Positions 4,212-61,682 of a DNA stretch of 64,000 bases are shown piece by piece. Source of the DNA: Blastocatellia bacterium. Lineage in GTDB: Bacteria > Acidobacteriota > Blastocatellia > UBA7656. Each line of letters opens with the position of its first letter. Position 1 is the first letter of the stretch. A program made the translations under genes and the position numbers. The stretch is taken from assembly GCA_963765495.1 (NCBI GenBank), contig CAVXWP010000008.1, positions 864,001 through 928,000 on the forward strand, given 5' to 3'. The notes beneath the pieces were generated by a model, which did no database searches, had not been told where the DNA came from, and was given only the letters and a program-made list of their open reading frames with translations.

Positions 4212-4302
4212 GAAATAGGCCGCGGATGACGCGGATGCGACGGATTTTCGCGGATCTGACATTTTATGAGTTAATCCGCGTAGATCCGCCGCATCCGCGT
4301 CA
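4212..4302. repeat. Palindromic element with ~9-bp CGCGGAT repeat arms (copy 1), right arm truncated and fused to a TCACGAA arm at 4310-4340
   Basis: GAAATAGGCCGCGGATGACGCGGAT...ATCCGCGTCA; homologous to 7025, 9863 and 17698. Confidence 0.85.
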
Positions 4303-4358
4303 ACGGCATGATAAATCACGAATCACGATTCGCGAATCACCTGTGATAAAATGCTTAT

Positions 4359-6014: not shown

Positions 6015-6845
6015 CTATTCCTCTATATCGAAGGAGATTGATTTCGCGACCGAGGTCGATTCGTTCATATTGAGATCGACTCGGTAAGTACCTACCGGGA
6101 ACCCATTGGTTGGCTTTGTGATCGTGAAATCGATGTAGTTCTGCTCTCCCTCCAGGGTGACCGAAGTCTTTGCAATTTCGTAATTCGGTTCAACCCCCTC
6201 GGCCTTTTCGGCTATCCAGTGCGCGGTCACCTTAGTGCCGGGTGCAGGCCCTGTAAAGCGGACGCGGCAATAAATCTTTGCCGTGTCTGTGCCAACAGAT
6301 TCGACAGCGTCTCCGCCCTCTTCCGTCGCAATTCTGACATCCGAAATCGTGGCGCTTGAGCTTCCCGTCGGGCTGGCGCTTGAAGGCGCACCGGCTCCGC
6401 TTCCGCCCGTGACGGTAAAGGTCAGAGTTTTATCGGGGGCCTTTTCTTTATCCGCCGTGGGGTTGAGGAATATGTCTACTTTGTAATCGCCTGGAGGGAG
6501 GCCGCCCGTTGGTGTCAATGTGAAATCAACGATGTTTTTCCCTTGTGTCTTGATTTCAGTTTCGTCAATGTGATGATTTGGCTCAAATCCCTGGACCTTC
6601 ACCGCGGTCCATTTCGCTTTGACCCGCGTGTCATCCGGCGCATTGCCGATCTCTATGACCGCGTGTATAACGGGGTCGGTAGACTCGAATGTAGTCGTGG
6701 GGTTGACGGCTTCCTTATTGTCATTTACGGTCTTCGACATCTTCGCATCGGTTATATGCGCCGTAGAAAAATTGAAATTACAGGCACCGGCTATCAAGAA
6801 AAGAACCAAGATTGCCAGTGCTGATACTGATTGCTTTCCGCTCAT
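6015..6845 (-). CDS. Hypothetical lipoprotein with two tandem beta-rich domains
   Basis: Lipobox LIAGA-C; two ~100-aa repeats (T.V.A.W.A.K..G.EPN..I...G.P.G.Y.VD...N) joined by a Gly/Ser linker. Confidence 0.8.
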   Translation of the reverse strand: MSGKQSVSALAILVLFLIAGACNFNFSTAHITDAKMSKTVNDNKEAVNPTTTFESTDPVIHAVIEIGNAPDDTRVKAKWTAVKVQGFEPNHHIDETEIKTQGKNIVDFTLTPTGGLPPGDYKVDIFLNPTADKEKAPDKTLTFTVTGGSGAGAPSSASPTGSSSATISDVRIATEEGGDAVESVGTDTAKIYCRVRFTGPAPGTKVTAHWIAEKAEGVEPNYEIAKTSVTLEGEQNYIDFTITKPTNGFPVGTYRVDLNMNESTSVAKSISFDIEE

Positions 6846-6958
6846 CCGTTTTTCTCCTTTTTGATCTTCGCACACAGTTATGCTGCAAACCATATTGGGC
6901 AAGATCGTATGGGTCATCCGTGGCGTAGCATCCTAGCAAAAGCGCGTCCAGGTCCACA

Positions 6959-7252
6959 AGACAGGATTAACTAAATCGAAATGCACAAGCCTGGTACAAA
7001 CGAAACTCCAAAGTAGTGTAATTAGAAATAGGCCGCGGATGACGCGGATCGGGCGGATCTACGCGGATCTGACCCTGTATGACCCAATCCGCGAAAATCC
7101 GCCCGATCCGCGTCATCCGCGGCCTATTCCGATCTGCCTTTCATTCAAACTCATTTGTACCAATCTCTTGCGGAGTGATTTAGATTCGATAGGATCAGAC
7201 AAGATTCTTTTTAAATCCTGTCTAATCCATCCAAATCCTGTCAATCCTGTCT
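6959..7252. repeat. ACAGGAT/ATCCTGT-family hairpin interrupted by a MITE-like insertion
   Basis: Left arm is split (6959-6970 and 7184-7206); right arm AATCCTGT repeats at 7214-7252 reach the permease stop codon. Confidence 0.7.
6971..7183. mobile_element. MITE-like element (copy 1) with ~33-bp imperfect terminal inverted repeats and an internal CGCGGAT palindrome (7025-7130)
   Basis: Left CTAAATCgaaatGCAcaagccTGGTACAAAcGA versus reverse complement of right CTAAATCactccGCAagagatTGGTACAAAtGA; second copy at 9808-10023. Confidence 0.75.
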
Positions 7253-9692
7253 ACTCGTATCGGAGCGCGGTCATCGGGTCCACTTTCGCCGCGCGGCGCG
7301 CAGGAATGAGCGTCGCTATGAAGGCTACGAGTGAAAGCAGGAGAGGAGTAGCGAGGAAGGTTATCAAATCGGTTGCGCTTACACCATAGAGCAGGCTCGA
7401 CAGGAAGCGCGTCAGACCGAAAGCGGCAAGAAGGCCGATTGCCACTCCGATCAAGGCAAGCATCATGCCTTGCCTTACCACGAGTTTTAGCACATCCGAA
7501 GTTCGAGCGCCCAGCGCCATGCGAATTCCTATTTCATGAGTTCGCTGCGATACCGAATAAGTGATGACTCCGTATAGACCTACCGAAGCCAGCACAAGGG
7601 CGAGCATCCCCAGTATGCCTAGCAGTGTGGCTGCGATGCGTTGAGGGAAGACTGAGATGGCGAGATGATCGGTCATGGATTTTATCTCGTAGAGGGGCAG
7701 GTCGGGGTCCATCGCTCGCACTTCCTGGCGCACGGCGGGGAGCATCTCTTCGGGTGGCCCCGATGTGCGAATCTGAAGGACAACCTCCGAGCGATAGCTT
7801 TGCGCGATTGGCATATACATAAAAGGCTTCGGGTCTTCTCCGAGGAACTGGTACTTGCCGTCTCGGGCCACGCCAACGACTTCCAGTTTTGTATCGCCTA
7901 TTCTTATCTGCGAGCCAAGCGGGTCACGGTCTCCCCAGTACCGTCTGGCCATTGTCTGATTGATGACCGCCACCCTGTTCGAATCCTTATTATCTTGCGC
8001 GGTAAACTCTCGACCCTCGGTAAGCGGGATGCCCATCGTGGCAAAATAATTCAAGCCGACATTGTTGGTAAAGATGTTTATCTCTTCGCCGGGTCGGGGT
8101 TGGTATCCGTCTATTTGCGCGTGTGAAGAGCTTGACCCGCCAAAGCCGAGCGGGACGCGATGGGCCACTGTAGCCGATTCCACGCCGGGCATAGCCTTAA
8201 TTCTTTCTACCATCTGGTCGTGAAACAGCGTACCTCGCTCAGGCGTGTACCCGTTTGGGAAGAGGTCATAGCTAACAAGCAGCATGTTGTTTGGATTAAA
8301 ACCGGGGTCGAGAGTCTGGCCGTTTTTCAGGCTCTTTAGGAACAGCCCCGCGCAAATCAACAGCAGAAGTGAAAGGGCTACTTGAAAGACCACCAGCAGA
8401 TTGCGGAGCCGCGATCTTGCCTGCCCGCCCCCGCTTCGCCCGCCCGCGTCCTTGAGCGTGTTGATCAAATTCGGGTTGGATGTCTGAAGCGCCGGGGCGA
8501 GTCCGAAGATCAACCCTGTCAGGACTGAGACGACAAGTGTAAAGATAAGGATGCGACCGTCAAGGTCGGTCGCAAGCTTTACGGGGATATCGGTTGTAGG
8601 AGCAAAGGCCAGCAAGAGGCCCGCTCCCCAATAAGCTACAAGTAATCCGCCAAGCCCGCCTACAAGAGCGAGTAAGACACTTTCGGTCATCAACTGACGT
8701 ATAAGCCGCAACCGACTGGCTCCAAGCGCCAGCCGAATGGCGATTTCCTTTCTGCGGCCCACGGCTTTCGACAGCAATAAATTGGCCACGTTGGCGCAGG
8801 CAATCAGAAGTACCAGCCCGACTACGGCGGTCATCACGAGCAGAACGGGTTTGAGAAGGAACCCTGCTCCCCACGGAGAGTTCCACAATGGATATAGCGC
8901 GGCGGTCATTCCTTCGTTCGAGCGAGGGTATTCCTGAGCAAGCTGACCGGCCACCGTGTTTATGCTCGACTCTGCCTGTGAGATAGTCACGCCGGGCTTT
9001 AATCGAGCCAGCGACTGCAACCAGCGATTCCCTCTCTGTTCAAGCAATTTGTCGCCCGGAACCACCTGTTGCTGCATCATCATCGGAACCCAGATATCGA
9101 GACCGAGACCTACAACCGTTCCTCCGAAATTTTCAGGAGCGATGCCGACGATAGTGAAGGGGTGGCCGTTTATCGTCACTGTTCGGTTCAGAAGGCCGGG
9201 ATCGGAATTGAACCGGCGTTGCCACAATCCGTGGCTGATCACGGCCACGGCATGGCTGCCGGGATCGCGATCTTCTTCGGGCAAAAAGGTCCGACCGGGC
9301 GAGGCCGCGACTCCCAGCACGTCAAAGTAATTGCCCGACACAATCGCGCCATAAACGCGCTCGGCCCGTCCGCCGTCGCTCAGGCTCATGGCCTGCATGT
9401 CGAATGTGGTGACGCCTGAGAAAACTTCGTTATGGTCTCTGAAATCGACGAAGTCGGGGTAAGAACAACTGATGGGTGACCCGGAAGGCGACTTCGTAGC
9501 GAGTACGACCAGGCTGTCCGGGTCAGACACTCCCGGCAACGGGCGCAATAAAACGGCCTGTACCCAACTGAATATCGTAGTATTTGCCCCAATTCCAAGG
9601 GCAAGAGAAAGGACCGCGATGCCCGTCAGACCGGGATTTTTTAAGAGAGTGCGAAAGCCAAAACGGATGTCTTGAAGCAGGGTGTCAAACAT
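7251..9692 (-). CDS. ADOP-family duplicated orphan ABC permease (MacB-PCD/FtsX x2)
   Basis: QDIRFGFRTLLKNPG, LLIACANVANLLL, RTHEIGIRMALGA, ends DPMTALRYE; no ATPase gene nearby. Confidence 0.95.
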   Translation of the reverse strand: MFDTLLQDIRFGFRTLLKNPGLTGIAVLSLALGIGANTTIFSWVQAVLLRPLPGVSDPDSLVVLATKSPSGSPISCSYPDFVDFRDHNEVFSGVTTFDMQAMSLSDGGRAERVYGAIVSGNYFDVLGVAASPGRTFLPEEDRDPGSHAVAVISHGLWQRRFNSDPGLLNRTVTINGHPFTIVGIAPENFGGTVVGLGLDIWVPMMMQQQVVPGDKLLEQRGNRWLQSLARLKPGVTISQAESSINTVAGQLAQEYPRSNEGMTAALYPLWNSPWGAGFLLKPVLLVMTAVVGLVLLIACANVANLLLSKAVGRRKEIAIRLALGASRLRLIRQLMTESVLLALVGGLGGLLVAYWGAGLLLAFAPTTDIPVKLATDLDGRILIFTLVVSVLTGLIFGLAPALQTSNPNLINTLKDAGGRSGGGQARSRLRNLLVVFQVALSLLLLICAGLFLKSLKNGQTLDPGFNPNNMLLVSYDLFPNGYTPERGTLFHDQMVERIKAMPGVESATVAHRVPLGFGGSSSSHAQIDGYQPRPGEEINIFTNNVGLNYFATMGIPLTEGREFTAQDNKDSNRVAVINQTMARRYWGDRDPLGSQIRIGDTKLEVVGVARDGKYQFLGEDPKPFMYMPIAQSYRSEVVLQIRTSGPPEEMLPAVRQEVRAMDPDLPLYEIKSMTDHLAISVFPQRIAATLLGILGMLALVLASVGLYGVITYSVSQRTHEIGIRMALGARTSDVLKLVVRQGMMLALIGVAIGLLAAFGLTRFLSSLLYGVSATDLITFLATPLLLSLVAFIATLIPARRAAKVDPMTALRYE

Positions 9693-9807
9693 GCAGCCCC
9701 CAGATGTCTAAAAGATTGTAGGTTCACTGCTGCATTACTAATCGGGAGGGGATTTGGTTCGATTATTTTTTCCTGACCTCCAAACCTCAAGTGTCAAATA
9801 TCAAATC

Positions 9808-10023
9808 CAGAATCGAGATGCACAAGCCTGGTACAGACGAAACTCCAAAGTGGAGTGATGTAGAAATAGGCCACGGATGAACGCGGTTGCGACGGATTTT
9901 CACGGATCTGATTTTATATGAGCTAATCCGCGTAGATCCGCCGCATCCGCGTTCATCCGTGGTCCATTCCAATCTGACCTTCATTCAAATTCATTTGTAC
10001 CAAACTTTTGCGGAGTGTTTTAG
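9808..10023. mobile_element. MITE-like element (copy 2) with internal CGCGGAT palindrome (9863-9970)
   Basis: Colinear with 6971-7183 along its length (ATGCACAAGCCTGGTACA...TCATTTGTACCAA...GCGGAGTG.TTTAG). Confidence 0.75.
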
Positions 10024-10024
10024 A

Positions 10025-12487
10025 TCATTCGTATCTGAGAGCTTCCATCGGGTCTACCCTCGTAGCCCGTCGCGCAGGCACGAAACAGGCTGCAAGCGCC
10101 ACTCCCGCCAATATCATCGGCACCATCACAAACGTCATCGGGTCTGTCGCGCTCACCCCAAACAGCAGGCTGCTCATCACTCGCGTCAACGCATAGGAGG
10201 CGGCTAGCCCTGACAGTATGCCGGTAAGTATCAGCGCCATCCCCTGCCCCACTACCAGTCGCAGGATGTCTCCGGTCTTCGCTCCCAGTGCCATCCTTAT
10301 TCCGATCTCGTGCGTGCGTTGAGCCACCGTAAATGATACGAGTCCGTAGATCCCAACAATCGCCAGTATCAGCGCGACCGCGCCGAATGTGCCCATTAGA
10401 ATCATGTTGAATCGCGGCTGCGCGATAGCGCCTGCCAGTACCTGTTCCAGCGTTGTTATCTCTGAGATGGGCTGGGTTGCATCTATCGCGCTTATTTCAT
10501 CTCGAATCGCCGGGATGAGGGATGAAGGATCACCTGTAGTTCGTATCAGCGCCGTCATATCGGCCAGAGGAACCTGCCGCGCAGGCAAATAATATGCAGG
10601 CTCGATCTCGGCATCCAGACCCATAAACTTCGAGTCTCGCACGATGCCTACTATCTCGAATGAAGTAGGGACAGCCTTTCCCCAGAGGTTTGATGGAGTT
10701 GTGATCTGTACTCGCTTGCCAAGCGGGTCTTCGTCTGAAAAGTAGCGGCGAGCCAGGGCGTCGTTTATGATGATCACACCGGGGCGGTCGGTGTCATCCT
10801 GCTCGGTGAAGAGGCGGCCTCTTTCCAGTTCCATCCCAACCGTGCGGAAATAACCGGCGCTTACGGGGCGGAATCTGCCGGAGGGATGTTCACCCGGCTC
10901 AGGTTCGGGGCGCCCTTCGATTGAAAAACTGTCTATCCAGGTTGATTTCAACGGGTGGTCATAGGCCACGGCAGTGGATTCGACTCCCGGGATGCGGTTA
11001 ACTCGTTCGAGGAATTCCGCATAGAAATCTCGAATCTGATACCAGTCGGCATACTTTGATTGAGGCAGGGTGAGATCAAACAGCAGGACCCCCTGCGCAT
11101 TAAAGCCGGGGTTCACACGATTTAATTGCCAGAAACTCCTGATCAATAAACCGGCAGCCGTCACAAGAATGACCGCAAGGCTCACTTGAGCCACAACAAG
11201 AAGGCGACGAAACATCTGGCGGCTCGTCCCCGGTTGCAGGCTCCGCCCCCCCTCCTTGAGCGTCTCTACGAGATCGGGTCTGGAAGTTTGCAGGGCCGGC
11301 ATCAATCCGAATACGAGACTGGAAAGGAGGGAGATAAGCAGGGTGAAGCCAAGCACGTTCGAATCAACCCTGACCTGATCGAGCCGGGGGATTTCCTGTG
11401 GGATGATCTTCAGCAAGAGGTCAATGCCAAATAGCGCGAGCCAGATGCCCGCAGCGCCCCCGACAAGCGCAAGTAACAGACCTTCCACAAAAAACTGGCG
11501 CACCAGCCGCAGTCTGCTCGCGCCAAGCGCCGCGCGAATCGCCACCTCTTTCTGGCGTCCCGTCATCCGCGCAAGCAGGAGACTCGCTATGTTGGCGCAG
11601 GCAATCAGCAACACTAACCCGACCGTGCCAAGCAGGATTAGCAGCGCCGGTCTCACGCTTCCAACCACCTCATCGACAAGCGGGCTGACCAGTATGCCTT
11701 CATTCCTGTCTTCCGGGTATTGCTGTTCAAGGCGGGCGGCGATCACATCCATTTCCGATTGCGCATCTTTAATAGTAACGCCCTGTTTGAGGCGACCAAT
11801 GACCCCGAGTACGTGCGAATTGCGATTTGCGGCACGTTGTTCATTTAGCGTGAAAGGGATCAGATAATCCTGATGACTCGGCTGGAAAATTATCTGCGTG
11901 GATGTCATTGGCCACGTGGGATAAATACCTGCGGGCATCACTCCAACAACGGTGTAGCTGGTCCCATCCAACGTGATCGCCTTGCCGATAATATCGGGAT
12001 CGGCTCCGAACCTTCGCACCCACAAACCGTGCCCAAGAATGATCACGCTGTTTCTGCCCGGCTGCCCCTCTTCGGCTGAGAATGCGCGACCCAGAATCGG
12101 TGAGAGTCCCAGCGTAGCAAAATAGTTTGTGCTGACCCGCGCGCCCAAAAGCATTTCGGGTTCACCACTGCCGGTCAGGTTCATGCCGGACGCGCCGAAA
12201 GTTGCTATGTTTTCAAAAAGGGTGCCCTGCCTTTGCCAGTCAAGATAATTCGCGGGCGTTACGCGCGATCTGTCCCCTCCCCGGTCGATCCTGGTTTCCC
12301 AGAGCGCAACAACCCGGTCAGGCTCCTTATATCCCAGAGGCTTGAGCAAGACCGCGTTGACTACGCTGAAGATCGCCGTGTTTATCCCGATCCCCAATGC
12401 CAGCGTCATTATTACCACGGCGGTGAATCCGGGATTTTTGACCAGCAACCGCATTCCGTACTTCACGTCCTGCCACAGATTGTCCAT
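10025..12487 (-). CDS. ADOP-family duplicated orphan ABC permease
   Basis: MDNLWQDVKYGMRLLVKNPGF...DPMEALRYE; RBS AGGAG before ATG 12487. Confidence 0.95.
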   Translation of the reverse strand: MDNLWQDVKYGMRLLVKNPGFTAVVIMTLALGIGINTAIFSVVNAVLLKPLGYKEPDRVVALWETRIDRGGDRSRVTPANYLDWQRQGTLFENIATFGASGMNLTGSGEPEMLLGARVSTNYFATLGLSPILGRAFSAEEGQPGRNSVIILGHGLWVRRFGADPDIIGKAITLDGTSYTVVGVMPAGIYPTWPMTSTQIIFQPSHQDYLIPFTLNEQRAANRNSHVLGVIGRLKQGVTIKDAQSEMDVIAARLEQQYPEDRNEGILVSPLVDEVVGSVRPALLILLGTVGLVLLIACANIASLLLARMTGRQKEVAIRAALGASRLRLVRQFFVEGLLLALVGGAAGIWLALFGIDLLLKIIPQEIPRLDQVRVDSNVLGFTLLISLLSSLVFGLMPALQTSRPDLVETLKEGGRSLQPGTSRQMFRRLLVVAQVSLAVILVTAAGLLIRSFWQLNRVNPGFNAQGVLLFDLTLPQSKYADWYQIRDFYAEFLERVNRIPGVESTAVAYDHPLKSTWIDSFSIEGRPEPEPGEHPSGRFRPVSAGYFRTVGMELERGRLFTEQDDTDRPGVIIINDALARRYFSDEDPLGKRVQITTPSNLWGKAVPTSFEIVGIVRDSKFMGLDAEIEPAYYLPARQVPLADMTALIRTTGDPSSLIPAIRDEISAIDATQPISEITTLEQVLAGAIAQPRFNMILMGTFGAVALILAIVGIYGLVSFTVAQRTHEIGIRMALGAKTGDILRLVVGQGMALILTGILSGLAASYALTRVMSSLLFGVSATDPMTFVMVPMILAGVALAACFVPARRATRVDPMEALRYE

Positions 12488-12541
12488 TTGATCTCCTAAT
12501 CTCAGCGAGCGCATCTCAAATCTCGAATCTCAAATCCGAGA

Positions 12542-14959
12542 TCATTCGTATCTGAGAGCTTCCATCGGGTCTATCCTCGTAGCGCGTCGCGCAGGCACGA
12601 AACAGGCTGCAAGCGCCACTCCCGTCAATATCATCGGCACCATCACAAACGTCATCGGGTCTGTCGCGCTCACCCCAAACAGCAGGCTGCTCATCACTCG
12701 CGTCAACGCATAGGAGGCGGCTAGCCCTGACAGTATGCCGGTAAGTATCAGCGCCATCCCCTGCCCCACTACCAGTCGCAGGATGTCTCCGGTCTTCGCT
12801 CCCAGTGCCATCCTTACTCCGATCTCGTGTGTGCGCTGCCTGACCGAATAAGAAATCACGCCGTATATTCCTATGCTTGCCAGAATCAGAGCTATCGCGG
12901 AAAACATGGCAACGAGCAGCATGTTGAAACGCCGATCCGAGACCGATTCTGAAATCAGGTCGGTCATCGGGGCCACGTTGTAAATGGTCAACTCTTTCTC
13001 AAGCCCAAGCATTTGTTGGCGAACATTGCTTACCAGGGCCGAAGGGTCCCCGGTTGTGCGAATCGCTATGAAAGGGCTGACCGGCGGCCCCTGTTTGAAA
13101 TACATGTAGACTTCGGGGCGAGCCGCGACATCAAGCCCGAAATGATTGACATCGCCTACGACACCGACGATTGTCCACCACGGAGCATTCGGGTCGCCAA
13201 AAAACCTGATTCTTTTCCCGAGCGGGTCTTCACCCGGCCAGAACCTGCGCGCCGCCGATTCGGTGACAAGCCCGACCCTTGGCGAATCAGGCAAGTCTCG
13301 TTCTTCAAAGACGCGACCCTCCTTCAAGGGGATGCCCATCGCCTGAAAGTAATCCTTGCTTACACGGCGGAATTCGACTTCGGGACGCTCGCCTTCCGGG
13401 ACGGGCTGGCCCTCGATTTCGAGTGTGGTCGTGACCCCATCCATATTGCCTAATGGAAGCCGCGTGGTCCCGCCCACGGCCTGTACTCCAGGCAGAGAGG
13501 CTATGCGTTCAAACAATTGATCGTAGAAGGCCGCTCTCCGTGCCGATTGTCTGTACTGTTCCTGTTCCGGCAGCATGATTTGCATCGTCAGGAGATTTTC
13601 CTGATTGAACCCCGGATTTACCTGCAACAGGCGAGAGAAGCTGCGTATCATAAGACCCGCGCCTATCAACAACACGAGCGCAAGGGCTACTTCAGACACC
13701 ACGAGCAGGCTTCGCAGCCGGCCTCTGCCGCTCGCAAAACTCGTCCTCCCTCCTTCCTTGAGCGATTCGGTCAGGCTTGACTTTGAAAATTGCATCGCGG
13801 GGGCGAGGCCGAAAATGATTCCGGTCAATAGCGATATTATGAGCGTGAAGCCAAGCACCTGAGAGTCAATAACAATCTCATCGAGGCGAGGCAAATTCTT
13901 CGGGCTCAGCGCGCGAAGAAGGCTCACGCCCCATAGCGAAAGCAGCAAACCGGCCGCGCCGCCTACAAGAGAGAGGGTAACGCTTTCGGTCAAAAACTGC
14001 CGAATGAGTCGCAGGCGGGAAGCGCCAAGCGCGGTTCGGACCGCGATCTCTTTCTCCCGCGCTGCCGCTCGCGCTACCAGAAGGTTGGCCAGATTGGCGC
14101 AGGCAATCAGGAGCACGAAACCGACTACGCCAAACAGGACGAGCAGCGCGGGTCGAACCTTCCCTGTGATCTCTTTGTGAAGAGAGACGACATTGCCGCC
14201 AAGCCCCGTGTTTATCTCGGGGTATTGTTGCTCTAGCTGTCGAGTGATTGTAGCAACCTCCGTTCCGGCCTGATCAAAACTTGCGCCCGGAGCGAGATGT
14301 CCCACAACGGTCAGAAAGCGTACGGCTCGCCCTCGCGGAATAACCGGGTTAAGCTGCAACGGGAGCCAGAGGTCTACGTCTTCAAGGAAGTGAAACCCGC
14401 CGGGCATTACCCCGATGATAGTTGTCTTTCTGCTGTCGAGCGTTATCGTTTTGCCGCAAACATTCGGGTCTGCGCCAAAATGTCTAAGCCACAAACTATG
14501 GCTGATCAATGCGAGGTCTTCCTTGCCGGGTTTGTCTTCGGATTCTTGAAAAGCGCGGCCTAGAATCGGCCTTACGCCGAGCAGATCAAAGAAAGAGGCC
14601 GAGACCCAGAACCCTGTCACGTGTTCGGGCTCACCGTCGCCTGTGAGCCCGAAATTCCAGACCGGCGTAATCGCAGTCATCTCATCGAAACTCTGGCTCT
14701 GGTTACGGATATCTTCATAATTCGGGAAGGAAATGGGGTCGAGTTTCCCGCCTTCCTTGAAGTTTTCGTTCCGAACAATCGCAAGCCTCGACGGGTCTTT
14801 GAACGGGAGAGGCTTGAGCAGCACGCCATTTACTACGCTGAAGATCGCGGAGTTCGCGCCTATGCCAAGAGCAAGAGTCAGCACAGCGACAGAGGTGAAG
14901 CCGGGGTTCTTAACCATCATTCGGAACGCGTATCGGATGTCCTGCCAGAAATTTTGCAT
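12542..14959 (-). CDS. ADOP-family duplicated orphan ABC permease
   Basis: MQNFWQDIRYAFRMMVKNPGF...DPMEALRYE; RBS GGAGG before ATG 14959. Confidence 0.95.
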   Translation of the reverse strand: MQNFWQDIRYAFRMMVKNPGFTSVAVLTLALGIGANSAIFSVVNGVLLKPLPFKDPSRLAIVRNENFKEGGKLDPISFPNYEDIRNQSQSFDEMTAITPVWNFGLTGDGEPEHVTGFWVSASFFDLLGVRPILGRAFQESEDKPGKEDLALISHSLWLRHFGADPNVCGKTITLDSRKTTIIGVMPGGFHFLEDVDLWLPLQLNPVIPRGRAVRFLTVVGHLAPGASFDQAGTEVATITRQLEQQYPEINTGLGGNVVSLHKEITGKVRPALLVLFGVVGFVLLIACANLANLLVARAAAREKEIAVRTALGASRLRLIRQFLTESVTLSLVGGAAGLLLSLWGVSLLRALSPKNLPRLDEIVIDSQVLGFTLIISLLTGIIFGLAPAMQFSKSSLTESLKEGGRTSFASGRGRLRSLLVVSEVALALVLLIGAGLMIRSFSRLLQVNPGFNQENLLTMQIMLPEQEQYRQSARRAAFYDQLFERIASLPGVQAVGGTTRLPLGNMDGVTTTLEIEGQPVPEGERPEVEFRRVSKDYFQAMGIPLKEGRVFEERDLPDSPRVGLVTESAARRFWPGEDPLGKRIRFFGDPNAPWWTIVGVVGDVNHFGLDVAARPEVYMYFKQGPPVSPFIAIRTTGDPSALVSNVRQQMLGLEKELTIYNVAPMTDLISESVSDRRFNMLLVAMFSAIALILASIGIYGVISYSVRQRTHEIGVRMALGAKTGDILRLVVGQGMALILTGILSGLAASYALTRVMSSLLFGVSATDPMTFVMVPMILTGVALAACFVPARRATRIDPMEALRYE

Positions 14960-14997
14960 ATTTCCTCCCGCCTCTATCTCAAATCTCATATCCGAGT

Positions 14998-17430
14998 TTA
15001 TTCATATCTGAGAGCAACCATCGGGTCCACTTTCGTAGCGCGGCGGGCAGGAACATAACAGGCTACAAGGGCCACGACGATAAGCAATAAAGAGACCGCA
15101 ATAAAGGTGACAGGATCGGTTGCGCTCACGCCGTAAAGCAGTACCGACAACACCCGCATCAAGGCAAGCGCCCCGGCAATTCCGCAAACGATTCCGGCCC
15201 CGGCAAAGCTCATGCCCTTGCCCAGTACGTTTCTTAGTATCGCGCCCTCGCCTGCGCCAAGCGCCATGCGGATGCCTATTTCGTGGGTCCGCTCAGTGAC
15301 CGAGTAAGAGATAACACCGTATATTCCTACGAGGGCGAGCACCAGTCCCACAGCGGCAAAAATGACCAGAAGCAGCGTGTTGAATCGCTGTTGCGCGATT
15401 GAATTTGCGATCAACTCTTCGATTGGCGAAATTCTGTAGACCGGCTGATCGGGGTCTACGGCTGCGACTTCCCCGCGAATTGCGGAGGCCAGGCTCATCG
15501 GGTCGCCCGAAGCCCTTACAACAAAGTTTCCCCACCCCCAGGTTTGTTGACGATGTGGGACATACATCTCCGGCAACAGGTCGCGCGAAAGTCCAGAATG
15601 GCGCACATCGCCGACTATGCCTACGATCTCCCAGATAGCAGGCTCGTTATCGTCTACATTTACGCCCACGTTAGAGATTCGCTGGCCGATAGGGTTTTCA
15701 TCCGGCCAGTAGCGACGGGCAAGCGTTTCATTGAGGATGACAGCGCCGATTCCGCCTTTTCTGTCCGCATCGGTGAACTCGCGGCCCTTCAATAAAGGAA
15801 TACGCATTGTTTTGAAGTAACCCGGTGTCACACCGCGAAGACCGGCTTCGGGTTCCTGTCCGGGCAATGAAGGCCGTCCCTCAATCGTAAAACCCGTGTA
15901 AACATTATTTCCGCTAAAAGGTGCGGGCGTCACAAGGTCGGCAGATTTTACGCCGGGGAGAGCCCTTATACGATCGAGCACCTGTTGAAAGAACTCTATC
16001 CGCTGCTGGTCTTCCGGGAACTTCGTGCGCGAGGTCGAGATTCGCGCCATCAACACGTTCTCAGGATCGAAGCCGGGATTGACCTGTCTGAGCGTGAAGA
16101 AACTCTTTATCAATAATCCCGCGCCGATCAAGAGCATGAAGGCCAGAGCCACCTCAGAAACTACAAGCAAGCCGCGAAGGCGATGGCGTCCGGGACCGGC
16201 GGTGCTGCTGCGGCTTCCATCCTTGAGCGATTCATTCATATCGGGGTGCGATGCCTTAAGCGCAGGCATCAGACCAAAGATGATGCCCGTCAAAATCGAG
16301 GCCGTAAACGTAAAGGCGAGGACGCGAATATCAATCCCGACCGCGTTTATTTGCGGCAGATTTGCCGGCGCGAAAGAGATCAGGAAATCTTTCCCCCACG
16401 CGCCGATAAGCAATCCGAGCGCGCCGCCCGCAAGTCCAAGTATCAGGCTTTCCGTGAGCAGTTGCCGCACTATGCGCCATCGGCTCGCGCCCAGTGCCGT
16501 GCGGATGGCGATCTCTTTTTGACGTGACGAGGCTCTTGCAAGCAGCAGGTTCGCCACGTTCGAACAGGCGATCAGCAACACGAAGGCCACAGCGCCAAAC
16601 AAGACCCACAGCGCGGGACGGACATCAGCGACAAGATCATCGTGTAATCCGACAAGCTCAATGCCGATGTCGGTATTTGTCTGGGGGTAGAGTTTTTCGA
16701 GGCTTGCGGCAAGATTGCGCATATCGGCCTGCGCCTGCTCGATTGTAACGCCGGGTTTCAAACGGGCTACTACCCGATTTGTCTTGGCTCCCCTCTCTTG
16801 CAGGTTGCCCCCTTCGAAGGCAATGGTTGTGAACACCTTCGCGTCGTCAACAGAGACCGGAAATTTAAATTCTGCGGGCAGGACGCCAATGATCGTGTAG
16901 GGCTCATCGCTAAGCATGAGGGTACGGCCAGGTACGGTTGTGTCCCCGGCAAACAATCGCTGCCATAGACCATAGCTCAAGACAACCAGCCGTTCTGAGC
17001 CGGGTTTGTCTTCGCCCGGAAGAAAGGTGCGGCCGAGTATCGGGCTTACCCGGAGAAGATCGAAAAAATTTGCCGATACGCTCCCGCTGTCGATCCGTTC
17101 GGCCTCTTTGAATCCTGTGAGAGTAAAACCGGTTGACCTGAAGGCCGCGACATCGTCAAAGACCTGGTTCTGCGCTCTCCAGTCTTCGTAATTCGGGAAA
17201 GAAGTCATGAAGCCGCCCTTGCCGATCTTTGTATCGAACTCAGAAGCGAGCACGAGACGATCGGCTTCAGCAAGCGGGAGAGGGCGCAGCAGGATCGCGT
17301 TTATCACGCTGAAGATTGCCGTGTTGGCCCCAATGCCTAAAGCCAGAGCGAGTACGGCGATCCCGGTGAATCCCGGTTTTTTCAGCAGAGTGCGAACAGC
17401 GTAGCGAATGTCTTGAATCAAACTCTCCAT
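14998..17430 (-). CDS. ADOP-family duplicated orphan ABC permease
   Basis: MESLIQDIRYAVRTLLKKPGF...DPMVALRYE. Confidence 0.95.
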   Translation of the reverse strand: MESLIQDIRYAVRTLLKKPGFTGIAVLALALGIGANTAIFSVINAILLRPLPLAEADRLVLASEFDTKIGKGGFMTSFPNYEDWRAQNQVFDDVAAFRSTGFTLTGFKEAERIDSGSVSANFFDLLRVSPILGRTFLPGEDKPGSERLVVLSYGLWQRLFAGDTTVPGRTLMLSDEPYTIIGVLPAEFKFPVSVDDAKVFTTIAFEGGNLQERGAKTNRVVARLKPGVTIEQAQADMRNLAASLEKLYPQTNTDIGIELVGLHDDLVADVRPALWVLFGAVAFVLLIACSNVANLLLARASSRQKEIAIRTALGASRWRIVRQLLTESLILGLAGGALGLLIGAWGKDFLISFAPANLPQINAVGIDIRVLAFTFTASILTGIIFGLMPALKASHPDMNESLKDGSRSSTAGPGRHRLRGLLVVSEVALAFMLLIGAGLLIKSFFTLRQVNPGFDPENVLMARISTSRTKFPEDQQRIEFFQQVLDRIRALPGVKSADLVTPAPFSGNNVYTGFTIEGRPSLPGQEPEAGLRGVTPGYFKTMRIPLLKGREFTDADRKGGIGAVILNETLARRYWPDENPIGQRISNVGVNVDDNEPAIWEIVGIVGDVRHSGLSRDLLPEMYVPHRQQTWGWGNFVVRASGDPMSLASAIRGEVAAVDPDQPVYRISPIEELIANSIAQQRFNTLLLVIFAAVGLVLALVGIYGVISYSVTERTHEIGIRMALGAGEGAILRNVLGKGMSFAGAGIVCGIAGALALMRVLSVLLYGVSATDPVTFIAVSLLLIVVALVACYVPARRATKVDPMVALRYE

Positions 17431-17532
17431 AGCCTTTTTCCCCTTAAATCTGTCAATGATGACTTCAATGATTGATTGACAGTGTTTCGATAATTGATCG
17501 CGAACGAAGGCGCTTTTCCCTGTGAAGGCTAA

Positions 17533-17548
17533 ACCAAGCGGCGTGCCA
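17533..17548 (-). promoter_or_regulatory. Possible sigma54 (-24/-12) promoter for the ADOP array
   Basis: Minus strand TGGCACG-CCGC-TTGGT: perfect -24, -12 is GG instead of GC. Confidence 0.4.
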
Positions 17549-17697
17549 TAGGTGTTGACTACTCTTAAGTGAATCAATAGCTCAAGTTGGCGGGGTTTAA
17601 TAAATCACGGGCGAGCATAACGGTGTTCGTTTCCTGGAAAGCCATTCCCAAAAACGGGCACGAATCAGTTTTCCCAATATCTTCAAAGGGGCGAATA

Positions 17698-17804
17698 GAA
17701 ATAGGCCGGGACGGTCGCGGATGCGGCGGATCGACGCGGATCAGACCATATTTGAGCTAATCCGCGCTAATCCGTCACATCCGTCGAATCCGCGACCTAA
17801 TCTC
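17698..17804. repeat. CGCGGAT-armed palindromic element (copy 4)
   Basis: GAAATAGGCC...CGCGGAT...TGAGCTAATCCGCG...ATCCGCGACCTA; just downstream of the M28 peptidase stop. Confidence 0.85.
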
Positions 17805-17813
17805 CACGATGCA

Positions 17814-19482
17814 TTAATTGTCGGTCAGTTCAGGCGGCAACTGCTTGTCTACGCGAGGGCGGGCCGAGGCGTTGGCCAGTTCCCAGGCGGTGGCAAAGAT
17901 TGTGCGCGCAACTTTCTGCATATAGTTGTAGTCAATCTTTTCGACCGAATCCGAGGGCTGATGATAGTCCTCGTGATCTCCGTCCATGTAAAAGATTATT
18001 GGGATGCCTTTTCGCGCATAGTTGAAATGATCGCTCCTGAAGAAGAAGTGATTCGGGTCATTCGGGGCATCATATCTGTAATTGAACCCCAGATTGAGAT
18101 ATGACTTGTTGACTCGCTCGCTCAATTCTCCGAGGTCCGTGCTCATCTTTTTTGACCCGATCAGATAAACTTCATTCGGTCCCGGCAAATCCTTGTTCGC
18201 GGGATTATTGTCGCCTTCCATCTTTCTTCGACCGATCATGTCAATGTTTAGTTGAGTCACGATCTGGTTTAGGGGGATTGTCGGATATTCGGTGAAGTAT
18301 TGCGATCCCCACAGTCCCTTCTCTTCCCCCGCGTGCCAGATGAAAAGTATCGAGCGCTTTGGGCGCGGGCCGTGAGCGAATGCCTCTGCCATCGCAAGGA
18401 CGGATACCGTTCCCGAACCATCATCATCGGCTCCGTTGTATATCGCGTCTCCATTGACGGGCGGTCCGATCCCTACGTGATCGTAGTGCGCGCCTATGGC
18501 TACGTATTCGCTCTTGAGCGCAGGATCACTGCCTTCAAGAACCGCCAGCACATTTTGAGTGTCTACCTGTTCGGATTTGACCGCGACAGTAAAGCTCAAT
18601 CTCTTGTTTGGATTCAATTGAAACGGGGGCAGAAGATCATCAGCCGCCATGTGGTTGAAGACATCAGAAGCCCTTTGCTTCTCACCTTGAAAGAGTGCGG
18701 CCAGCATTTTTGGCGAAACGATTATCGAAGGAATAGTGGGCTGGGAATCGGTCTCAAATTTCTCGACCGACACCACGCCGTGTTCTATGCCCAACTTACG
18801 GGTCTGATTCCAGTTTGCGAGCAATTGAAAATCGGCGAGAATGATAGTTCCAACCGCGCCATGCTTCTGGGCATTCCTGCGAGGCGTTTCCCAGTCTTCG
18901 CCCTGTTTGCCCGTCAGGTCTTGAAATGTAACGCCTTTTGGGAACCCGTTACCGGCAATAATAACGATTTTGCCTTTCACATCTAAACCTTCAAAGGCAT
19001 CCATTTTCTTCGACTTTATAAACCATCCGTGCCCGGCGTAAACGAGCGGCCCGCTGGCCGTCCCCGCGCCTGCCGCGCCAAAGGCTATCGAAGCCAGAAA
19101 GTCTTCGCCAAACGCAAAGCTCTGGTCTCCCATCTCGGGCATGAGTTCCGACGGGATCAACCGAGGCGCGCCGCAACGCGATTTTCTGAAAGTAAGTACC
19201 GTTGTCTCCGGCGGGCTTGAGCCCCCAGCGGGCAAGGTTTAAGGCGATAAACTTGGCCGCCGTATCAAGCCCCCGCGAGGGGGTGTCGCGCCCTTCCATC
19301 TCGTCGGATGCGATGAAGTAGAGATAGTCCCTTAACTGATCCGAAGTGATGGCATCCACGTTTCCAAACCGAGACTCGGACCGGGCAACGCCGCCTTTCT
19401 TGCTGCCGGGATGCGCAAACGTTCCAGCCTGTGGCACAAGCATGCCTAAGGCCAGAACAAGTACAAAAAAGATCTTTTTCAT
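17814..19482 (-). pseudogene. M28 family aminopeptidase with PA domain, split by a 1-nt frameshift near 19138 (real or sequencing error)
   Basis: N-part has a signal peptide and ASDEMEGRDTPSRG; C-part has GAHYDH, NGADDDGSG, GEEKGLWGS, RSDH, DYHQPSD. The frames join at CAT GCC [C] GAG ATG. Confidence 0.85.

Positions 19483-29106: not shown

Positions 29107-29128
<22 letters not shown>
28643..29128 (+). CDS. tadA: tRNA adenosine(34) deaminase
   Basis: [26 protein letters not shown]; stop codon lies inside the downstream tRNA. Confidence 0.95.
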
Positions 29129-29196
<68 letters not shown>

Positions 29197-29199
29197 CCT

Positions 29200-29283
29200 G
29201 GATTTTAGATTTTAGATTTTAGATTTTGGATTCTTTGGGAAACTCGCTTTGAAATCCAAAATCTAAAATCCAAAATCTAAAAT
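29200..29283. repeat. Heptamer-armed hairpin (GATTTTA)n / (TCYAAAA)n between the two tRNAs
   Basis: GGATTTTAGATTTTAGATTTTAGATTTTGGATT...AATCCAAAATCTAAAATCCAAAATCTAAAAT. Confidence 0.9.
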
Positions 29284-29285
29284 AG

Positions 29286-29375
<90 letters not shown>

Positions 29376-29389
29376 CCACGCTTTGCTTG

Positions 29390-61590: not shown

Positions 61591-61682
61591 AGTGATGCGT
61601 GAAGAGTGATGCGTGACTATCAGGTAAACCGCCTGTTAAAAAAATAGTGCTAGACAGGCAAATCACGAATCACGAAACACTC
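61591..61682. repeat. Heptamer-armed hairpin element, GATGCGT/TCACGAA family (copy E)
   Basis: GTGATGC arm, 46-nt spacer (61617-61662), TCACGAA arm; lies between convergent genes. Confidence 0.85.

Follow-up and report, generated by a model that had tools for sequence, protein, structure and literature searches.

Gene conversion is well established in bacteria generally, and ectopic examples are reportedly found in the tufA/tufB genes of Salmonella and in the babA/babB genes of Helicobacter pylori, the field being said to have been reviewed by Santoyo and Romero in 2005. The subject of the present work is a stretch of 64,000 nucleotides (nt) from a Blastocatellia bacterium (assembly GCA_963765495.1, positions 864,001 to 928,000 of contig CAVXWP010000008.1, here C8), which as a whole is called the window and whose own numbering is used unless a contig is named. 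It carries four tandem genes, A to D, for permeases of the ADOP family, two of which, B and C, share a nearly identical 297-nt tract at their 3' ends. In our opinion this tract is very probably a recent, short and non-reciprocal patch, i.e., the trace of an ectopic gene conversion between adjacent and anciently diverged paralogs.

The locus resembles known cases of ectopic gene conversion and segmental concerted evolution in having a sharply bounded tract, identity at synonymous sites and paralogs that are otherwise diverged, and it follows known bacterial gene conversion in favouring close neighbours and in having its boundaries within conserved segments. It departs from the latter in the extreme divergence of B and C, whose third positions are saturated, and in that only the gene end is affected. 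Long-lasting concerted evolution has been described for 26 core genes in prokaryotes, with no ADOP genes named in the abstract of that work (PMC6053082); unlike the cases as presented in this abstract, B and C give no sign of long-lasting homogenisation of the whole gene. At the protein level, the nearest comparison is with the MacB-type (type VII) ATP-binding cassette (ABC) permeases, where the region matching the tract forms the major coupling helix, transmembrane helices 3 and 4 (TM3, TM4) and the minor coupling helix, but ADOP proteins differ from MacB in that they are duplicated and have no ATPase fused to them or encoded next to them. No paper on gene conversion in ADOP genes was found in the literature searched. 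The process itself is ordinary; its systematic pattern in the ADOP family adds something modest to what has been described, without revealing a new mechanism.

The shared 3' end of genes B and C

The four open reading frames (ORFs) lie head to tail on the minus strand in the order D-C-B-A, B and C being the third and second genes. All of them are full-length members of NCBIfam TIGR03434 (ADOP family duplicated permease), each matching model positions 1-803 with scores above the curated cut-off of 622.3 bits. The features concerned are the following:

14998..17577, minus strand: ADOP gene D, 859 amino acids by the longest ORF, first in the array, tail unconverted (TIGR03434, 1050.3 bits)
12542..14989, minus strand: ADOP gene C, 815 amino acids, immediately upstream of B (TIGR03434, 1049.4 bits)
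12539..12835, minus strand: tract copy 2, made up of the final 97 codons of ADOP gene C, its stop codon and the 3 nt that follow
12515..12541, minus strand: C-B spacer from the C stop to the B start, 27 nt, of which only the first 3 nt after the stop are in the tract
10025..12514, minus strand: ADOP gene B, 829 amino acids (TIGR03434, 1022.6 bits; Pfam MacB_PCD twice and FtsX twice)
10022..10318, minus strand: tract copy 1, made up of the final 97 codons of ADOP gene B, its stop codon and the 3 nt that follow
10109..10299 = 12626..12816, minus strand: mismatch-free core of 191 nt, as given by the mismatch positions
7251..9692, minus strand: ADOP gene A, 813 amino acids, last in the array, tail unconverted (TIGR03434, 1014.6 bits)

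A first-pass annotation of the window had noticed by eye that B and C share a near-identical 3' end of about 297 bp with five differences, including some at synonymous sites. Both a repeat finder (10022-10321 against 12539-12838, 98%, with a start-to-start spacing of 2517) and a direct alignment of 9900-10400 with 12417-12917 recover the same repeat, with 292 of 297 positions identical between 10022-10318 and 12539-12835. The five mismatches (10057, 10067, 10108, 10300 and 10313) comprise two synonymous changes (ACG/ACA for Thr and CGG/CGC for Arg) and three conservative replacements (I/V, A/T and V/I). The edges are also where the annotation had placed them: the gene-internal one lies in the codons for QRTHEIG(I/V)RMALGA, past which identity collapses (6 of the 12 positions after 10318 are mismatched), and the downstream one 3 nt beyond the stop codon. 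This is the longest tract found in our analysis.

Outside the tract, B and C are only distantly related. A codon alignment gives 53.2% nucleotide and 35.1% third-position identity over 712 codons, so that the third positions of the bodies are essentially saturated, vs. 97.9% third-position identity in the 97 codons of the tract. Protein identity is 43.7-44.8% for the bodies and 96.9% for the tails, and in sliding windows the last 93 codons of the alignment stay at 96-100%, with values of 40-73% elsewhere. Moreover, in a set of 157 ADOP proteins the two tails are mutual best hits (96.9%), and neither body is among the 12 best body matches of the other. Tract and gene body are thus phylogenetically incongruent, and this conflict between the nearest neighbours of tails and bodies indicates that the tract was exchanged between old, non-sister paralogs.

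Chance is excluded as the source of such a tract. With a maximal-segment score of +1/-6, the B/C tract reaches 257, compared with a maximum of 26 in 2000 permutations of the columns of the same pair and of 75 in 2000 simulations at a uniform identity of 75%. The highest score among 1209 ADOP pairs from different loci (1210 minus a contig-overlap duplicate) is 34, which means that conserved motifs and codon bias are unable to produce tracts of this kind.

A third copy of the tract was not found in the genome, where the next-best match is 71-82% identical. Within the array, the 3' end of D is 62% identical to the tract (64-66% for its tail protein compared with those of B and C), and the tail of A is 62-64% identical to the tails of B and C. 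These values bear on an alternative in which purifying selection on a nucleic-acid element, either an RNA or a regulatory site, would have kept the gene ends alike. Nothing specific speaks for it beyond the position of the C tail just upstream of the B start; the other paralog tails, including that of D, are only 62-82% identical, the B tail stands in a different context with a 332-nt spacer downstream, and no Rfam hit was obtained in 6500-18500, so that we regard such selection as extremely improbable. An embedded RNA was rejected on the same lack of an Rfam family match over 6500-18500. Conversion biased towards GC was also considered and rejected, as the third-position GC content of the tract (0.68-0.69) is ordinary among all tails (0.651 ± 0.063).

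Tracts in other ADOP arrays and their breakpoints

By the annotation's own criterion, the exchange that it suggested would have been refuted if no other ADOP pair carried a comparable tract, but other pairs do. A search with a hidden Markov model built from A-D counts 53 ADOP ORFs at 21 loci in the 7.3 Mb of the genome, one of them a contig-overlap duplicate. Plain BLAST high-scoring segment pairs under-report tracts because the alignments run on into diverged flanks (the 394-nt alignment containing the B/C tract is only 89.6% identical), and the scan for recurrence within the genome was done by high-penalty megablast of each array against itself. Further tracts appeared in two other arrays, one of nine genes on contig C7 and one of 16 genes on contig C9, including 185 nt at 98.4% at 5' ends and a junction-crossing tract of 124 nt at 99.2%. 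Two blocks on C9 with the same offset, 177 nt at 99.4% and 234 nt at 97.0%, are one junction-spanning tract broken only by a 44-nt intergenic core. All five tracts of at least 120 nt in this genome join immediate neighbours.

Equivalent tracts occur in other genera of the same family, for which we examined nine ADOP arrays from eight genomes, picked for their many hits, so that the sample is not random. At least one tract of at least 80 nt at 92% identity or more is present in six of these arrays, and in three there is none. In a relative whose genome is in two contigs, a junction-spanning tract of 246 nt (99.2%) and a 3'-end tract of 236 nt (97.9%) are seen, and three other relatives have tracts of 154, 152 and 161 nt. 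The B/C tract is, altogether, one instance of a recurrent conversion in tandem ADOP arrays that is biased towards gene ends and junctions.

The bias is clear from the placement of the tracts. Among the 22 intra-array pairs scoring at least 35, the tract lies at the 5' end in 18, at the 3' end in four and never mid-gene, numbers to be read knowing that many of the 5'-end tracts come from one C7 network and are not independent, and that gene starts were taken from the longest ORF, whereby non-coding sequence upstream may be counted in some 5'-end coordinates. No tract lies mid-gene even though the first FtsX region there (nt 901-1080 of gene B) has the same background identity between paralogs (0.61-0.66) as the ends (0.66-0.68). 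The B/C tract, nt 2197-2490 of gene B, starts in the bin with an identity peak (2161-2250, 0.66) and ends after 2431-2487 (0.68), i.e., the two segments of the 3' region that are most conserved in nucleotide sequence lie at its edges. In a head-to-tail geometry, the conserved 3' end of a gene is followed directly by the conserved 5' end of its neighbour, and the two together make up the longest stretch of elevated similarity in each unit. Array geometry and junction-crossing tracts both fit an explanation based on the length of homology. The B/C tract was itself unable to cross the junction because gene B is adjoined downstream by the unrelated 332-nt spacer, the other spacers in the array measuring 8 nt (D-C) and 27 nt (C-B).

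A recurrence of breakpoints at the EIGIRMALGA motif, for which the annotation had suggested a check, was not seen. The seven other tracts of this genome touching a 3' end begin 30, 30, 30, 45, 68, 148 and 189 nt from the end of the gene, not about 297 nt, and in the relatives the starts lie 48-240 nt before the end, one 86-nt tract running across the motif region.

Several side observations concern short repeats. The 44-nt intergenic core on C9 (371634-371677 vs. 374192-374235) is flanked by inverted arrays of a GTTTTGA/TCAAAAC heptamer and has opposite orientations in two otherwise near-identical junctions, and several other junctions of this array also give inverted matches. A small element that inverts or forms a hairpin is a possible reading. 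The same architecture is seen in the window in a pair of repeats with 76% identity (1116-1203 and 61593-61680), which have tandem heptamers (TGATGCG...), their complement (...AATCACG) opposite and a centre of about 45 nt, and tandem arrays of 7 nt are present in ADOP spacers at C11:8404-8455 and C7:798509-798578. A different intergenic element, palindromic, of about 90 nt and similar to repetitive extragenic palindromes, occurs at 4212-4307, 7025-7120, 9864-9959 and 17698-17793, with GCGGATC/GATCCGC arms and predicted hairpins of -44 to -65 kcal/mol; its copies bracket the D-C-B block and gene A, and it gives about 290 BLAST hits over all contigs when both orientations of the palindrome are counted.

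As for the surroundings of the arrays, ORFs for PadR-family regulators are found immediately upstream of six ADOP loci (C9:387693, C7:173327, C8:698108, C7:661550, C5:173795 and C1:999550), among them the 16-gene and 9-gene arrays. The four-gene array of the window has no PadR gene upstream and a gene for an M28 peptidase is there instead. Elsewhere in the window, two tRNA-like direct repeats (29107-29205 and 29286-29384, 78% identical and 179 nt apart) are probably tandem tRNA genes.

Route of exchange, donor and assembly

The core proposal of the first-pass annotation, that a recent recombination homogenised the final transmembrane module of diverged ADOP paralogs, is supported by the identity switch, the controls and the recurrence. 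A plausible course of events would start with a break or gap in one of the tails, for whose repair the paralogous tail, at a distance of 2517 bp on the same chromosome or on a sister copy, would have served as template. Pairing could have been anchored on the QRTHEIGxRMALGA codons and on the last 60 nt or so of the gene, and the copied patch would stop at the stop codon because the sequences downstream are unrelated. The five differences would be either later mutations or the result of patchy mismatch correction at the edges of the heteroduplex. In the second repeat of both permeases, the segment from the major coupling helix through TM3 and TM4 to the C-terminal minor coupling helix would in this way have become the same, with the periplasmic domains of B and C left different by the event. 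We infer, moreover, that the copying was neutral.

Some points weigh against this reading. Before conversion the two tails would have shared no more than about 60-70% identity, too little for RecA-type recombination to work well, which makes a template-switch route or a history of repeated conversions equally possible. Furthermore, the differences cluster at the edges of the tract (P = 0.033 for a clean run of 191 nt under uniform placement), something that a single clean event does not predict and that weakly hints either at a younger event nested within the tract or at mismatch repair that was patchy. For B a single ortholog was detected, on the metagenome contig L033, with 60.2% identity to B in the body and 59.8% in the tail, and an ortholog of C above 45% was not found in the genome contigs searched (best 45%); these comparisons gave evidence neither of a direction of copying nor of non-reciprocity. 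Finally, read support is partial, consisting of a low-depth contig for the outer junction of copy B only, from a run that may be the source of the assembly; copy C is without contig cover, as 12504-13200 is uncovered in the three public runs compared (X1-X3, with a piece depth of about 3-5).

The two copies of the tract have diverged by 1.7% (5/297). No genome of the same genus was present among the 40 related genomes searched, where the best match to the tract is 74%, and a comparison of tails and bodies of the nearest tail-neighbours gave no consistent signal of a donor. The L033 comparison had suggested a foreign origin of the B tail, an idea that was dropped since 59.8% is normal for that body identity: pairs with bodies at 0.55-0.70 have an empirical tail identity of 0.649 ± 0.076 (n=64). 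In a wider set of 158 ADOP proteins (from this genome, from eight relatives and from L033), the tails of probable orthologs, i.e., of pairs from different genomes with 70-78% body identity, are often not more alike (64-89%) than the bodies, and distant paralogs with 40-45% body identity still keep tails about 58% identical. This could reflect either frequent tail replacement within genomes or a fast saturation of the sequences of transmembrane helices.

The fact that the direct repeats flank exactly one gene body plus spacer, with a spacing of 2517, would also fit a reciprocal event, either a circle made of tail, spacer and B body integrated Campbell-style into the C tail or an unequal crossing-over. 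We consider this very unlikely. Two near-identical bodies, to be expected after an unequal crossing-over, are not present, and a Campbell-style integration needs a tail that is already identical, so that the question is only moved back. B is in addition an old resident lineage, with an ortholog of 60% body identity in another organism (whose neighbouring genes lie out of view), and no integrase or recombinase family was recognised among the 20 flanking ORFs scanned, a selection of those between 235 and 26539. A site-specific mobile cassette with a gene end resembling an attachment (att) site was rejected as well, on the lack of a recombinase among the same 20 ORFs and because the repeat is 297 nt of coding sequence ending at the stop codon and not a short att core. 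On the other hand, the loss or amplification of the 2517-bp unit through the direct repeat, which the annotation had thought possible, is mechanistically plausible; no joint supporting a deletion or a circle was seen among the low-depth Logan contigs of X1-X3, in which 12504-13200 is uncovered.

If one tail had been written over the other during assembly or polishing, a tract of the observed type could arise with no recombination at all, and the draft state of the genome (17 contigs with overlapping ends), together with the missing independent cover of copy C, leaves some room for this. Half of the words sampled from the region are present in one public soil-metagenome run, and a 264-nt Logan contig of run X1 links the unique downstream flank of copy B (9952) to the tract (up to 10215) with 0 differences, carrying the three B-specific variants. 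In runs X2 and X3, only short pieces at 95-99% likeness with large unfitting parts were found, which probably come from other organisms. The copies differ at five positions and each copy has a unique in-frame context, and the assembly places internal repeats of 1.4-5.7 kb at 99-100% identity inside contigs, which indicates reads long enough to span a 297-nt repeat. As tracts of the same type exist in independently assembled genomes of other genera, an artefact seems highly improbable to us, and gene conversion stays the preferred reading. With regard to the draft itself, contig ends overlap in the pairs C10/C11, C11/C7, C2/C9 and C1/C8 (the last 8938 nt of C10 are the first 8937 nt of C11 at 99.83%, and C11 matches the end of C7 with its last 12.7 kb at 99.8%), so that the assembly is partly redundant and joinable, and the count of 53 ADOP ORFs includes one duplicate.

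ATPase coupling and the meaning of the arrays

The duplicated MacB-like architecture (two periplasmic core and two FtsX domains) is seen in gene B, on which the Pfam scan was run, and the C-terminal half of B aligns to the MacB structures 5gko and 5lil. By this alignment and a review of MacB (PMC5985334), the tract corresponds approximately to residues 574-669 of 5gko, a region that begins with the major coupling helix, continues with TM3 and TM4 and closes with the minor coupling helix, so that the ATPase-contacting elements are within the tract. No ABC ATPase is encoded beside the array: none of the 71 PF00005 matches of the genome falls in C8:864001-928000, the nearest on C8 being at 748001. 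A-D are therefore permeases to which the "orphan" of the family name applies.

The annotation had seen in the exchange a possible way of keeping variable periplasmic domains compatible with a shared ATPase. In such a non-neutral scenario, selection would maintain identical modules for coupling to the nucleotide-binding domain, together with TM3-TM4, by a long-term concerted evolution, so that several orphan permeases could fit one ATPase as their periplasmic domains diversify. Besides the position of the tract over ATPase-contacting elements, as placed by the MacB alignment and PMC5985334, and the lack of an ABC ATPase in the window, the scenario would agree with the scarcity of ATPases at ADOP loci, since a small ATPase ORF is directly upstream of only two of the 21 (C1:1166418 and C4:237762, which would be candidates for a shared motor), and with the fact that tracts avoid the parts coding for periplasmic domains. 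However, the equally conserved region of the first half (0.61-0.66), which includes FtsX and a coupling helix, has none of the 22 tracts, and most other 3' tracts begin downstream of the coupling helix. The tail protein of B and C is only 62-74% identical to the other tails compared in this genome, so a common tail is not needed for function; three of the five differences are amino-acid changes, and the tracts in other arrays run through non-coding junctions, as homology length would predict. Compatibility with a shared ATPase as the driver thus found no support, and we think selection of this kind unlikely.

A broader version of the idea, about which we are equally doubtful, would see tandem ADOP arrays as cassette systems, in which conversion of ends and junctions keeps a shared head-and-tail block fitting a scarce common ATPase. 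If this were true, the shared block would comprise the N-terminal helix and TM1 on one side and the coupling helix, TM3-TM4 and C-terminus on the other, and it would provide in-frame homology for expanding, contracting and reshuffling cassettes of periplasmic domains, such as the 2517-bp unit. The bias towards gene ends would then be selected and not a by-product of homology length.

With a neutral conversion as the preferred reading, the finding concerns the large orphan-permease arrays of soil Acidobacteria, with 52-53 copies in this genome and up to 35 in a single array of one relative. Periplasmic domains diverge freely in these arrays while neighbours overwrite the ends of each other's genes, and ADOP genes are consequently mosaics. 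Trees, orthology calls and primers will therefore mislead when they are derived from either end of an ADOP gene, and the direct repeats of 150-450 nt within the arrays are potential sites of deletion, duplication and short-read misassembly.

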